Shown one piece after another: positions 24,912 through 30,727 of a DNA stretch of 44,569 nt. Numbering within the stretch: the first letter of the stretch is position 1; every line of letters starts with the position of its first letter. The notes beneath the pieces were generated by a model. That model was not told the origin of the DNA, searched no databases, and worked only from the letters and a program-made list of their open reading frames with translations. Source of the stretch: Escherichia phage SECphi4; the sequence record MT331608. The stretch is one strand, 5' to 3'. The position numbers and the translations under genes are program-made.

Positions 24912-25023
24912 CCCGTCCGCGGACCCCGACGAGGATTTGATGATTGATGTGAAAAATATGGAATGCGGGGCGAAGCTAAGGGCGCAGGTGCTGGAGTTGC
25001 AGCAAATAATTAAGGGGCCGTAA
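24793..25023 (+). CDS. o-spanin (Rz1-like outer-membrane lipoprotein)
   Basis: Signal peptide with lipobox LSAC; proline-rich mature part; embedded in the +1 frame of the i-spanin gene; AAGAGG SD. Confidence 0.7.
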   Translation: MLRALTALIVVLMLSACGSSNAPLMPLTESALRPPCKFDSPSADPDEDLMIDVKNMECGAKLRAQVLELQQIIKGP

Positions 25024-25036
25024 TGGCCCCCTTTTC
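25014..25036. terminator. Bidirectional rho-independent terminator between convergent genes
   Basis: Stem GGGGCC/GGCCCC with 5-nt loop, flanked by an A/T-rich run upstream and TTTT downstream. Confidence 0.6.
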
Positions 25037-25037
25037 G

Positions 25038-25802
25038 TTAGCGCGGAATACCGCAAATCTCGTTGAGAGTTTTCACATCCAGCGCCACCGCCGTGGATTT
25101 TGGCTTGTCCGGGTAAGGGATGAATTGCTCAACTTCAGGCCATGCCTTAATCAGCTTCTTATCGGTATTGTGCATATCCAGCACACCGGTAACGGTCAAC
25201 TTGAATGCGTCATACTTCGCACGCAATTCGCGGCGGGCCTGGTCGTTACGGTCAAGGCGCTTACAGAAGTCATGATCCGCCGGGAAATCAGCACGGCAGC
25301 GTGGCTTATAGATCGGAAGCGATTTTCCGTCCTCGTCCACTTCACACACCGAAGCCAACATAACTTCCTCGAACCCCGGTACGATATCGCCGAGATCGGG
25401 AGATAGCTTATTCATGTATTTATACTCCCAGTATCCGCGATGTACTCGGTATTGGTGCCCATCGCCGCTCAATGACAAGGTGCGAACGTTACCGCCTGCG
25501 TTGATTTCGAAAGTGGCGTCGTAAACGCTGCCAATACCTTTGGGGCGGTCGGTGTTATAACTATACGTCGCCTTGTTGGTGTATACGCAGACGCCGTACA
25601 TCTGCGACGGGTCATCGTTGATTGCTTCGATGTGTGCGAATAGTTCGGCGAACGTATGAATGCCCCCCGGCATACAGTGCAACGTAATGTCATACGCCAG
25701 GTCGCGCGAGTCCGTCATGATTGATTTGGCTTCGGTAGCGATTTCGTGGTCGCGCAGAATGTTAGCCAGAATCTGGTTTTTAATGTCTTTGGTCAGTCTC
25801 AT
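25038..25802 (-). CDS. Opposite-strand hypothetical protein (254 aa) inserted in the head module
   Basis: ATG at 25800..25802 with GAGGA SD; own promoter upstream and terminator downstream; no recognisable motif. Confidence 0.6.
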   Translation of the reverse strand: MRLTKDIKNQILANILRDHEIATEAKSIMTDSRDLAYDITLHCMPGGIHTFAELFAHIEAINDDPSQMYGVCVYTNKATYSYNTDRPKGIGSVYDATFEINAGGNVRTLSLSGDGHQYRVHRGYWEYKYMNKLSPDLGDIVPGFEEVMLASVCEVDEDGKSLPIYKPRCRADFPADHDFCKRLDRNDQARRELRAKYDAFKLTVTGVLDMHNTDKKLIKAWPEVEQFIPYPDKPKSTAVALDVKTLNEICGIPR

Positions 25803-25832
25803 TTTTGTGTCCTCGTTGTTGGTGTGCAACCA

Positions 25833-25861
25833 ATATATTGCAACCAATACAAGGATTGCAA
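25833..25861 (-). promoter_or_regulatory. Sigma70-like promoter (TTGCAA-N17-TATATT) with two ATTGGTTGCA copies
   Basis: Motif copies at 25825..25834 and 25839..25848 on the complementary strand; serves the gene starting at 25802. Confidence 0.5.
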
Positions 25862-25951
25862 GCGAATTTTGCGATTATTTTTATCGCTGATAATATTAGA
25901 AGCGTGAAGTCAAGCGGGTGGCCCGCTTTGCCACAATCCCAGGGGGATAGC

Positions 25952-26653
25952 ATGAAACTTACTAAAGCAGAATATGACGCGTTGCCGGAAGGTATGAAGG
26001 CGCTTTTTGTTGCCGATGGCGACGGGTATAAATCAACGTTCATGACCGCCGAAGAAGTACAGGCGGAGGTTAAGGGTCTGAAAGACAATAACGCGAAGCT
26101 GGTTAGCGAGAAGAAAGCAGAAGCCGAACGTCGCGCCGAAGCCGAGCGCCTTGCGAAAGAGAAAGAGGAAGCCGCCGCGCGCAAAAATGGCGACCTCGAA
26201 GCGATCGACAAGTCCTGGAAAGATAAGTTTGCGAAACACGAAGCAGACACATCGGGAAAAATCGAAGCCTACCGCAAGCAGATCCACGATCTAACCATCG
26301 GCAGCGCTGCCAAAGATCTGGCCTCGAAGCTGTTCGGTAAGAATGCTGGCATCATGCAACGTCACGTTATGGACCGCCTGACGCTGGAAGACGGCGAAGA
26401 CGGCAGCTTAAAAGTGCGGGTCTTGCAGGATGGAAAACCGTCCGCGCTGACTATGGAAGAGCTTGAAAAAGAGTTCCGTAATAACGCCGATTTTGCATCC
26501 GTCCTGGCAGGCACGCCAGCCGGTGGTGCGCCGAGCAAACCGACGCAGGTTGTCGAGGATGTGAAGTCTAAAATCACTATGGGCCACAGCTTCGGTATCA
26601 CTGACTTAACGAAACAGGCCGGTGAAATCATCGCTAAGATGGGCGACGAGTAA
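25952..26653 (+). CDS. Scaffolding protein
   Basis: 233-aa charged, coiled-coil-rich protein immediately upstream of the major capsid gene; AGGGGGA SD. Confidence 0.65.
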   Translation: MKLTKAEYDALPEGMKALFVADGDGYKSTFMTAEEVQAEVKGLKDNNAKLVSEKKAEAERRAEAERLAKEKEEAAARKNGDLEAIDKSWKDKFAKHEADTSGKIEAYRKQIHDLTIGSAAKDLASKLFGKNAGIMQRHVMDRLTLEDGEDGSLKVRVLQDGKPSALTMEELEKEFRNNADFASVLAGTPAGGAPSKPTQVVEDVKSKITMGHSFGITDLTKQAGEIIAKMGDE

Positions 26654-28868: not shown

Positions 28869-28869
28869 C

Positions 28870-29463
28870 GTGGCTGAGGTCTACTCATTCGCCGCCACTA
28901 TTGCTACGTGGGTGGATAAGACGAAGGAGAACAACGATAAGGCGGTGCGGGCGTACGGGATGCAAATACTCGGACGCCTTATTGAGATCTCCCCGGTGGG
29001 CGACCCTCGCCGGTGGAAAATTAACAGGGCTTACGCGCTGGCCCGCCAGCACGCGAACAAGGTGAACGCCGCGCAGCGTCGCAAGAATGGTGGCAAACTG
29101 AAGCGCGGGCAGAAAAAGCACGCCAGCGTGCTGGTGTCATTCAAGACTAAAAACGGCAACGTCACGTTCCGCCAGCGTGGCTGGGCTGCGAAGAATTACA
29201 CCGGCGGACGCTTCCGGGGAAACTGGCAGGTTACGTTCGACCGACCGGCGGTTGGCGCTATAGACCGCGTGGACAAGGCCGGAACGGCAACATTAGCCGC
29301 TGGGCGTGAAGTGCTGGCGCATTACGATTCCAGTGAATACGGGTCGATCTGGTTTACTAACAACGTGCCCTACGCGCAGCGACTTGAGTATGGCTGGAGT
29401 AAACAAGCGCCCGCGGGGATTGTTCGCGTCGTAGCGGCAGAAATTAATTCGAAGGTGAAATAA
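28870..29463 (+). CDS. Head-tail connector protein (HK97 gp10-like)
   Basis: GTG start; FRGNWQ and NNVPYAQRLEYGWSKQAPAG motifs resemble the HK97 gp10 family. Confidence 0.6.
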   Translation: MAEVYSFAATIATWVDKTKENNDKAVRAYGMQILGRLIEISPVGDPRRWKINRAYALARQHANKVNAAQRRKNGGKLKRGQKKHASVLVSFKTKNGNVTFRQRGWAAKNYTGGRFRGNWQVTFDRPAVGAIDRVDKAGTATLAAGREVLAHYDSSEYGSIWFTNNVPYAQRLEYGWSKQAPAGIVRVVAAEINSKVK

Positions 29464-29885
29464 TGAGCAATACCGCAATCCGCAAAGCGCTTAACAGCGT
29501 GGTTGATGAGTTATCGGCAAGCCTGAGCACAAGCCAGCGTCCGATTAGGGTTAACTGGGAGAACGTGAGCGGCGACCACGCAAACGGCAGCGGTGTCTAC
29601 CTGGAGCCGTACCTGCTACCGGCCCCGACCCAGTTTGTGGGCTTACAGCAGAAGGGCCGGATCTATGCTGGCGTATATCAAGTTGCCGTGGTGTTCCCGG
29701 CTGGCACTGGCACACAGTACGCGAGCGAACTGGCGGACGCCATCGCTACGTCGGATATGTGGCTGGCGGTGAAGATTTCCGGTGCGTCATTTCAGCTTCA
29801 GGACGCGCCATACACCAGTTCAGTGATTGAAGACGTTGATCGCGCCCGCATCGTGGTTACAGTCCCCTACACCTGTTGCGCCTGA
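29463..29885 (+). CDS. Putative tail completion or tail terminator protein
   Basis: 140-aa ORF immediately upstream of the major tail gene. Confidence 0.45.
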   Translation: MSNTAIRKALNSVVDELSASLSTSQRPIRVNWENVSGDHANGSGVYLEPYLLPAPTQFVGLQQKGRIYAGVYQVAVVFPAGTGTQYASELADAIATSDMWLAVKISGASFQLQDAPYTSSVIEDVDRARIVVTVPYTCCA

Positions 29886-29946
29886 TTTGGCGCTATTCTG
29901 CGCGTGCTGTATCATTGAACCGTATATCTAAACAGGAGTGTTCATT

Positions 29947-30672
29947 ATGGGTTATCAACTTCCTAACGGGTCTAGCGTCCAGATTGGGTCCGTACTGGGC
30001 AGCGGCATCGCTGTTACGGCAGCTACCAACGCTGCCGCGTCGATCTCAGACCTTACGCAAGGTTGCGTAATTACCTGCGCGGCTTCGCATGGCCTGGTTG
30101 TAGGCGACGTTGTTATGTTCACTAAAACCCCGTGGGTCCGTGCGCTGAACCGCGCGTTCATCGTGGGTAAAGTAGCCGAGAACGCTGTTACGCTGGCGCG
30201 CTTCGACACCTCGGACGTCACCAAATACCCGACCGGTGCTTTCGGCGTAGGCACACCAGGCGAAGTGGTGAAGGTGTCGAGCTTTATCGACTTCCCGTTT
30301 ATCACTAACGTCGCCGTGTCTGGTGGCGACCAGCAGACTACTACCTTCCAGCCGTTGCAGGTGAATACCGCGATTAGTCTGAATACCACGAAAAACCCGT
30401 TGGTCCAGACTTACACCTTCACCCATGACGAAGAAGACCCGATCCGCCCGATTCTGGAAGACCTGGACGACACACAGAAAACCACTGTGATTAAGTTCAC
30501 TAACCCGGCAGCGGCAAGCGGCAAAGGTGAGATCCGCATTTACCCGGCTAAGGTGTCTTTCCAGAAGATTCCATCGGCTGAAGTAAACAACGTGGAGACG
30601 GTGGAGTCCACTCTGACCATGCAATCCGATATGGTTATTTACCGTAAGGACCTGGTTGAAGCGCTGTCGTAA
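29947..30672 (+). CDS. Major tail protein
   Basis: 241 aa; AGGAG SD; lies between connector genes and the tail assembly chaperone. Confidence 0.7.
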   Translation: MGYQLPNGSSVQIGSVLGSGIAVTAATNAAASISDLTQGCVITCAASHGLVVGDVVMFTKTPWVRALNRAFIVGKVAENAVTLARFDTSDVTKYPTGAFGVGTPGEVVKVSSFIDFPFITNVAVSGGDQQTTTFQPLQVNTAISLNTTKNPLVQTYTFTHDEEDPIRPILEDLDDTQKTTVIKFTNPAAASGKGEIRIYPAKVSFQKIPSAEVNNVETVESTLTMQSDMVIYRKDLVEALS

Positions 30673-30702
30673 TTTGGTCGCTTAAATAGCGGGTGTTAAT
30701 AT

Positions 30703-30727
30703 GGGGCCGTACTGGCCCCTTTTTTAT
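30703..30727 (+). terminator. Rho-independent terminator after the major tail gene
   Basis: Stem GGGGCC/GGCCCC with 5-nt loop followed by T7. Confidence 0.65.

Follow-up and report, generated by a model that had tools for sequence, protein, structure and literature searches.

In phage T7, the terminator T-phi stands directly after the major capsid gene 10 and the essential structural genes beyond it are fed by read-through, and the lambdoid phages carry moron cassettes. The present analysis concerns hairpins at the gene ends of Escherichia phage SECphi4 (sequence record MT331608), whose 44,569 nucleotides (nt), analysed as a whole, are called the window below. GC-rich hairpins followed by T runs are found there after the genes for the spanins, scaffold, major capsid protein (MCP), major tail protein (MTP), tape measure, J-like protein, and fibre. 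Most probably they are canonical Rho-independent terminators, read by the host Escherichia coli RNA polymerase at module and gene boundaries, the internal ones being leaky. Leaky T7 terminators balance expression, as cited in a work that also reports four bidirectional terminators at convergent genes of Pseudomonas phage LUZ7 (PMC9163698), and the late gene clusters of siphovirus SPP1 are delimited by predicted stem-loop terminators (PMC6316719). For E. coli, Li et al. reported that a terminator a few bases past a stop codon is repressed by the ribosome; the efficiency of lambda tR2 is almost none at 8-9 bp from the stop codon and reaches its maximum of about 0.9 beyond ~30 bp (PMC4824070).

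A megablast search with positions 24000-32000 returned 158 phage records, 153 of them with at least 80% query coverage at 80-95% identity, and nearly all matches are Escherichia or Shigella phages of the genus Dhillonvirus (HK578, EP23, SSL-2009a, SO-1, and others). The window is a complete genome of this genus (an HK578/EP23-like coliphage) of ~44.5 kb, as indicated by the repeat at its ends: positions 1-65 and 44505-44569 are identical over 65 bp, an overlap left by assembly, the genome being circularly permuted or terminally redundant with a real unit of ~44,504 bp. The hairpins are already known as predicted terminators in GenBank records of close relatives and are an ordinary feature. The record of vB_EcoS_WFI (NC_073058.1) carries a "putative transcriptional terminator" before the holin gene, after the lysis genes, before terS, and at the spanin, scaffold, MCP, MTP, tape-measure, J, and fibre genes; ARNold was among the tools used for this annotation (Korf et al., 2019; PMC6563267). 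In HK578 (JQ086375.1), the spanin hairpin is annotated as a terminator on both strands. The terminators of these two phages are orthologous to those described here and occupy the same junctions, with only small sequence variants. Compared with the common form in relatives, the MTP loop of the window is the reverse complement and the T tract of its spanin hairpin is broken by a C.

Hairpins at the ends of the structural genes

The gene map was carried over from vB_EcoS_011D5 by tblastn, and key genes were verified by PHROG or Pfam matches. All seven hairpins listed in the first-pass annotation are present, and each lies on the strand of the preceding gene and has a GC-rich stem with a T run behind it; four of them lie within 25014-30727, the stretch to which the set had been assigned, and the remaining three lie outside it. 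The Rz-like i- and o-spanins (24582-25023, plus strand) end in a hairpin at 25014-25030 (element 25012-25035, both strands), GGGGCC-GTAAT-GGCCCC with the tail CTTTTCG, or, in its extended form, AAGGGGCC-GTAAT-GGCCCCCTT with TTTT. The o-spanin stop codon TAA (25021-25023) sits in the loop, the T tracts are imperfect both ways, and z, which compares the hairpin with shuffles of its own 51-nt window, is about -2.0 on both strands. After the scaffold gene (25952-26653, plus strand), the hairpin at 26658-26679 (element to 26682, plus strand) has a 9-bp stem, ATTGCCCGC-GAAA-GCGGGCAAT, and a short T tract, TTTTG, and begins 4 nt past the stop codon. The MCP gene (26751-27851, plus strand) is followed at 18 nt by a terminator at 27870-27889 (element to 27894, plus strand) with an 8-bp stem GGGCGGGC/GCCCGCCT, a TTAT loop, and T6; directly after it come the ribosome-binding site and start codon (ATG at 27910) of the Ad1 adaptor gene (27910-28410), which is next in line. 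The MTP gene (29947-30672, plus strand) is followed at 30 nt by a terminator at 30703-30719 (element to 30725, plus strand) with the 6-bp stem and 5-nt loop GGGGCC-GTACT-GGCCCC and T6, and the next ATG, that of the tail assembly chaperone (30742-31104), is at 30742.

Of the three more distant sites, the tape-measure gene (31803-34445, plus strand) has its terminator at 34452-34475 (element to 34479, plus strand), 6 nt past the stop codon, with a 9-bp stem containing one G-U pair. Its TTTT abuts the next ATG (34480), and the likely Shine-Dalgarno sequence of that gene (GGGGG) is inside the 3' arm of the hairpin. The J-like gene (37212-40631, plus strand) is followed at 5 nt by an energetically weak hairpin at 40637-40650 (element to 40658, plus strand), with a short 5-bp stem GGGGC/GCCCC and TTTCTTTT. 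The fibre gene (41967-43784, plus strand) is followed at 8 nt by a terminator at 43793-43808 (element 43788-43816, both strands), consisting of A5, GGGGCC-ATGC-GGCCC, and T9 (z -3.6 on the plus and -3.9 on the minus strand).

The same kind of hairpin occurs elsewhere in the genome. The pre-holin hairpin (17295-17329, plus strand), with 12 bp and T6, ends at the holin ATG (17330) and is the genome's strongest by energy. A terminator of this class stands at the end of the lysis cassette (18531-18556, plus strand; z -3.8), another before terS (19925-19950, plus strand), where it is overlapped by a candidate terS promoter, and similar hairpins follow several leftward genes. A loose scan for the terminator pattern gave only background (26 found, 23.3 expected). 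A strict scan, with a hairpin folding free energy (dG) <= -9 kcal/mol, a length <= 32 nt, and a weighted T score >= 3.2, gave 23 sites, against 11.1 +/- 3.2 expected from 20 dinucleotide shuffles. Fifteen of the 23 fall in non-coding DNA, which makes up 7.6% of the genome (binomial P = 4.6e-12), and all of these point in the direction of local transcription. At all sites the GC-rich stem-loop is of the kind typical of intrinsic terminators (a stem of about 5-14 bp and a loop of 3-8 nt), with dG values between -9.6 and -19.3 kcal/mol, and T tracts of T5-T9 follow the MCP, MTP, fibre, pre-holin, and pre-terS stems, with TTTT at the tape-measure and TTTCTTTT at the J-like hairpin.

Conservation of position, pairing, and spacing

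Conservation was followed across 24 related loci, taken from eight full GenBank genomes and 17 IMG/VR contigs. The set spans the L003 genome (~79% nucleotide identity) and two metagenomic contigs, L022 and L023 (MCP protein identity 90% and 84%), and also holds Edwardsiella phage eiAU, which belongs to another genus (61% MCP identity). Pairs were counted from per-locus folding; MAFFT alignment of distant orthologues, not being structure-aware, was left aside. A hairpin with a T run is found at the same junction in essentially all 24 loci, including eiAU. The scaffold stem is ATTGCCCGC/GCGGGCAAT or ATCGCCCGC/GCGGGCGAT, four of its eight variants carry a two-sided change from U-A to C-G, and 98.6% of its cells are paired, against 33-39% when the partners are slid. 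At the MCP junction, the stem is GGGCGGGC in the genus, AGGCGGC/GCCGCCT in L023, and GGGCGGGGC/GCCCCGCCT at the same position in eiAU, while MTP stems across loci are GGGGCC, GGGGGC, GGGGGCC, or GGCCGCC. The G-U pair of the tape-measure stem becomes A-U in relatives, in which other pair-preserving changes are also seen, and the pre-holin stem has a compensatory C/G insertion in L003 and L022. These differing stems and compensatory changes argue that the hairpin structure is under selection, although independent compensatory events are few in a genus only 6-20% divergent. Even where the stems differ, T runs of 5-9 are kept directly after them in all lineages.

The spacing between stop codon and hairpin and between hairpin and next ATG is kept as well: 18/20 nt at MCP, 30/22 at MTP, 6/5 at the tape measure, and 4/71 at the scaffold gene, with 21 nt between the MCP stop codon and the hairpin in eiAU. 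The claim of the first-pass annotation that intrinsic terminators punctuate the structural genes finds good support in their anatomy, by intergenic and co-oriented placement, by positional conservation with compensatory changes, and by the ARNold calls in relatives.

A separate observation concerns the loops. At three sites, they are exact reverse complements between genomes: GAAA/TTTC at the scaffold hairpin (L008), GTACT/AGTAC at the MTP hairpin, and GGAT/ATCC at the J hairpin (L001 and L002). In relatives with a convergent gene after J, the last of these is GGGGCC-N4-GGCCCC with the loop inverted between genomes. Such a pattern is the mark of an inverted hairpin and shows that structure rather than sequence is retained; inversion of the whole hairpin seems to recur as a mutation at these palindromes.

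Relative strength of the terminators

The MCP and MTP hairpins had also been held to be the strongest of the series. This is not so by folding energy. The pre-holin hairpin (dG -19.3 kcal/mol; z -6.6; ARNold value in vB_EcoS_WFI -10.4) stands above that of MCP (-17.2; -2.7; -16.7), and the scaffold (-16.1; -4.8; -20.6) and tape-measure (-15.5; -5.3; -14.7) hairpins stand above that of MTP (-12.4; -0.9; -13.7), with the J-like hairpin at -9.6 kcal/mol (z -0.15; ARNold -13.9). The picture is different when hairpin energy per nucleotide is combined with the T tract. This score is 47.9 for MCP, 49.7 for MTP, and 59.4 for the fibre hairpin, compared with 19-27 for the pre-holin, post-lysis, tape-measure, and J hairpins, 3 for the scaffold, and -4 for the spanin hairpin; the formula is that of d'Aubenton Carafa et al. 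(1990), used with modern energy parameters, and only the ranks that it gives are valid. The distance from the stop codon also sets the two apart: across loci it is 18-21 nt for MCP and 30-31 nt for MTP, and 4-9 nt for the scaffold, tape-measure, J, and fibre hairpins. By the rule of Li et al., we infer that, within the structural block, the ribosome would leave only the MCP and MTP terminators undisturbed. Their claimed superiority, therefore, survives for the combined score (with the fibre hairpin higher still) and for stop-codon distance, and is lost for folding energy.

Possible leaky termination and the ratios of virion proteins

The next ATG lies 20 nt after the T run at the MCP, 22 nt at the MTP, and 4 nt at the tape-measure terminator. 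These gaps leave no room for a promoter and the genes downstream are essential, so the terminators must sometimes be read through. Attenuation, or leaky termination, within the scaffold-to-tail block is plausible on this arrangement of the sequence, and has precedents in T7 and LUZ7 (PMC9163698) and in the layout of SPP1 (PMC6316719). The first-pass annotation supposed that it would raise the relative output of the most abundant virion proteins. However, the terminator of the MTP gene cannot raise MTP output relative to that of the low-copy connector genes upstream. Raising MTP would require either the candidate promoter at 29887-29915 or an effect of the 3' hairpin on mRNA stability.

It is proposed that the terminators inside the scaffold-to-tail block are leaky and would yield a descending staircase of transcripts, with a leakiness that varies by site, in part according to how far the hairpin lies from the stop codon before it. 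At 4-8 nt (scaffold, tape measure, J, and fibre), or with the stop codon inside (spanin), a hairpin would be partly blocked by the terminating ribosome, and the MCP and MTP hairpins, at 18 and 30 nt, would act nearer to their intrinsic efficiency. Candidate promoters of the sigma-70 type before the MCP and MTP genes would turn these into promoter-gene-terminator units nested in a longer read-through transcript, and the 3' hairpins may also stabilise the upstream mRNA. A further proposal, which we offer only tentatively, is that leakiness is encoded in the conserved stop-hairpin distance through gating by the ribosome, that stops of near full strength occur only after MCP and MTP, and that this, with dedicated promoters and possibly an action of the terS and scaffold leader hairpins on read-through, sets the ratios of the virion proteins.

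The promoters that this proposal calls on are predicted from consensus matches. A candidate for the whole scaffold/capsid/tail unit lies at 25869-25896 (plus strand, TTGCGA-16-TGaTAATAT), and its match to the consensus is conserved in the genus. The candidate MCP promoter (26681-26708, plus strand, TTGCGA-16-TAACAT) overlaps the T tract of the scaffold terminator with its -35 element; in L003, L022, and L023 its spacer has diverged but the hexamers and the 16-nt spacing persist, L023 having TTGCAC-16-TATCAT. The candidate MTP promoter (29887-29915, plus strand, TTGGCG-17-TATCAT) has an invariant -10 element and a variable spacer in 22 Dhillonvirus loci and is not recognisable in L023. Upstream of this block, the candidate terS promoter (19936-19964, plus strand) is TTGGTG-17-TGtTATAAT, with an extended -10 element; in L022 and L023 the stem of the pre-terS terminator differs, and the T run followed by TGaTATAAT or TGaTATACT is kept.

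Several points weigh against this interpretation. Set against shuffles of their own GC-rich 51-nt windows, the hairpins of MTP and J show no added stability (z -0.9 and -0.15), and the T tract is weak at the scaffold hairpin (TTTTG) and on the plus strand of the spanin hairpin (CTTTTCG). The rule on stop-codon distance was measured on one terminator, lambda tR2, in uninfected cells. Promoter-like matches occur genome-wide at background frequency, and the MCP and MTP promoters are therefore hypothetical, suggested by position and pattern of conservation. Finally, a literature search yielded no transcript-level data for any Dhillonvirus, only genome notes and one proteomics paper without relevant data.

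Alternative explanations

If the terminators were efficient and each unit had its own promoter, then the levels of the products would follow from promoter strength and not from attenuation. The candidate promoters after several terminators would fit this, namely those of terS, conserved across divergent lineages, scaffold, MCP, and MTP, and so would the overlap of the scaffold terminator T tract with the -35 element of the MCP candidate. Nevertheless, we regard such independent units as unlikely. At the MCP, MTP, tape-measure, and J terminators, only 20, 22, 4, and 19 nt separate the hairpin from the next gene, which is too short for a promoter, the preceding coding ends gave no promoter-like site when searched, and the downstream genes, which encode the adaptor, the tail chaperone, and the tail-tip proteins, are essential.

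The second debatable issue is whether the terminators are overridden in the late phase by processive antitermination of the Q, N, or put type, in which case they would serve as a gate in time that keeps out early or stray read-through and would not set protein ratios. The leaders of terS (19974-20009) and scaffold (25914-25948) each carry two conserved 5-bp hairpins with an (A/U)GG triloop, 22-23 nt apart, the second ending 3-4 nt before the ATG. The first of them covaries across genera (ATGGC/GCCGT, GTGGT/GCCAC, CGGGGG/CCCCCG, and, in eiAU, GGCGGGG/CCCTGCC). In addition, a promoter-proximal terminator follows a leftward early promoter (12041-12067), which is reminiscent of lambda PR'-tR'. On the other hand, a non-exhaustive scan of ten early proteins turned up no antiterminator of the Q, N, or any other family, and the relatives have none annotated. 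Rfam gave no match at gathering thresholds; relaxing these brought up only sub-threshold hits to small RNA models, at their terminator ends. The leader hairpins, of which the second in the scaffold leader holds the Shine-Dalgarno sequence, could equally be 5' stabilisers or translational operators; each of these roles, or that of an antitermination-type RNA, is possible. Taken together, late antitermination appears improbable.

Could the hairpins mainly stabilise mRNA 3' ends, or protect processed ends, with little termination? They stand directly after the most highly expressed genes, the T tracts at the scaffold and spanin hairpins are poor, and terminator hairpins are reported to raise the stability of upstream mRNA (PMC11696848). 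However, every lineage has kept T runs of 5-9 right behind the stems, for which a pure stability element would have no need. Stabilisation is also compatible with termination and does not exclude it. We consider it very unlikely that stabilisation is the main role.

The hairpins had been described as one family. The stem GGGGCC/GGCCCC does recur: GGGGCC-N3-6-GGCCC at three sites of the window gives five strand matches against 0.19 expected, and the stem is found at the spanin, MTP, J, and fibre junctions of relatives, with 3-4 sites per related genome. However, the scaffold and tape-measure stems depart from the quoted consensus and the flanks are unrelated, and the "family" is a common structural class, a shared solution rather than a repeated element. 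A homologous repeat family or mobile element of the REP or MITE kind was considered and rejected, since only the 6-bp stem is common and flanks and loops differ. That these are mobile palindromes or protein-binding sites unrelated to transcription is hardly credible in spite of their recurrence, given that the loops vary independently at each site, and that every site lies at the end of a gene with its T run on the side that is transcribed.

Convergent junctions and accessory genes

Three of the hairpins were claimed to be bidirectional, and convergent genes do flank one shared hairpin at three junctions. At 25014, it lies between the o-spanin gene and an Nmad5-domain gene (25041-25802, minus strand); at 41650, between the gene for a phrog_425 membrane protein and the Cor superinfection-exclusion gene (41665-41982, minus strand); and at 43793, between the fibre gene and a phrog_10558 gene (43815-44390, minus strand). 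The phrog_425/Cor hairpin (41646-41671, shared by both strands) consists of A5, AGCCCC-TTTC-GGGGCT, and TTATTT, with the better T tract on the minus strand, where z is -3.6. The A and T tracts are clean on both sides only at 43793 (A5/T9); they are asymmetric at 41650 (A5/TTATTT) and, at 25014, weak on both strands in the window (AATAATTAA/CTTTTCG) and better in relatives. It is proposed that these hairpins end transcription arriving from both sides and would thereby shield the opposite-strand accessory genes (Nmad5-domain, Cor, and phrog_10558).

The opposite-strand genes at the 25014 and 41650 junctions vary between relatives, which suggests that the hairpins bound slots into which accessory genes are swapped. 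In SO-1, the opposite-strand gene is annotated "DNA polymerase III beta subunit; possible moron". Between the J-like and fibre genes, the slot (40632-41985, compared with 37017-38312 in L001) holds two plus-strand membrane-protein genes and Cor in the window and in GeorgBuechner; most relatives have a minus-strand 321-aa gene and a lipoprotein gene there instead, and each cassette is bounded by hairpins.

Other features of the genome

The pre-holin (17295-17332) and tape-measure (34452-34482) terminators have a further peculiarity. Their T runs lead straight into the next ATG, 4-5 nt past the stem, and the only Shine-Dalgarno-like purines for the holin gene and the first tail-tip gene are in the 3' arm of the hairpin, so the same structure could also restrict translation initiation of these two genes.

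There are 12 copies of the 9-mer TGCAACCAA where 0.39 would be expected, nearly all of them in non-coding DNA, with one perfect palindrome and several tandem sites (487-508, 2391-2416, 12003-12011, 15223-15262, 15982-15990, 18590-18598, 25825-25847, and 41941-41949). Since its copies overlap or lie beside promoter-like sites, a phage DNA-binding regulator probably uses it as operator. The rightward early block opens with a gene (12199-12528, plus strand) for a 109-aa helix-turn-helix protein that scores above the Pfam cutoffs for HTH_23, HTH_28, and Sigma70_r4_2 and is labelled "transposase" or "recombination nuclease inhibitor" in relatives. It is a candidate regulator for the TGCAACCAA sites or for late promoters. 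At 12041-12125 (minus strand), a good match to a leftward promoter (TTGAAA-17-TGtAATAAT) has a strong terminator ~30 nt downstream (dG -15.7, T8), after which comes a second promoter match (TTGACT-17-TAATAT) with a TGCAACCAA site in its spacer. Such a layout would either produce a short RNA that ends at the terminator or place the early-left operon under leader-type control.

Two non-coding regions of ~200 bp, 14877-15071 and 31545-31739, are 81-100% identical and full of GCGGGACA iterons and palindromes. The first follows the helicase-primase gene, and the second interrupts the tail operon in a 384-bp gap before the tape-measure gene. In SO-1 they are annotated as repeat regions A and B; an origin or a promoter could lie within them.

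Comparison with known systems

For the specialist there is little new in these hairpins, as intrinsic terminators after capsid and tail genes are familiar in phage genomes. Their practical value is that Dhillonvirus phages, a common find in coliphage collections and therapy work, can be better annotated and engineered: the analysis charts the likely transcription units and provides short natural terminators whose strength is graded, as well as insulated places where accessory genes are exchanged. A modestly interesting idea is that conserved stop-hairpin spacing and nested promoters may set virion protein ratios; if true, this would be a compact ribosome-coupled scheme.

When compared with canonical E. 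coli Rho-independent terminators such as lambda tR2, the hairpins likewise have a GC-rich stem of 5-12 bp, a loop of 3-6 nt, and a U tract, and likewise follow a stop codon. They differ from them in that several stems have only 5-6 bp and lie 4-8 nt from the stop codon, a placement that represses tR2 (PMC4824070). The layouts of LUZ7 and of the morons also have one hairpin with an A tract and a T tract between convergent genes; in the window, the opposite-strand genes are variable accessory genes. Compared with LUZ7, the hairpin at 25014 has weak T tracts on both strands, and bidirectionality is here predicted from the sequence. SPP1 is similar in having a late region with predicted intergenic terminators and poorly defined late promoters and differs in its Gram-positive host and unrelated sequences, its terminators too being only predicted. 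The T7 terminator T-phi acts on the phage RNA polymerase, whereas the phage described here has no recognisable RNA polymerase and presumably relies on the host enzyme. In both phages, however, a terminator stands directly after the major capsid gene, and the essential structural genes beyond it rely on read-through.

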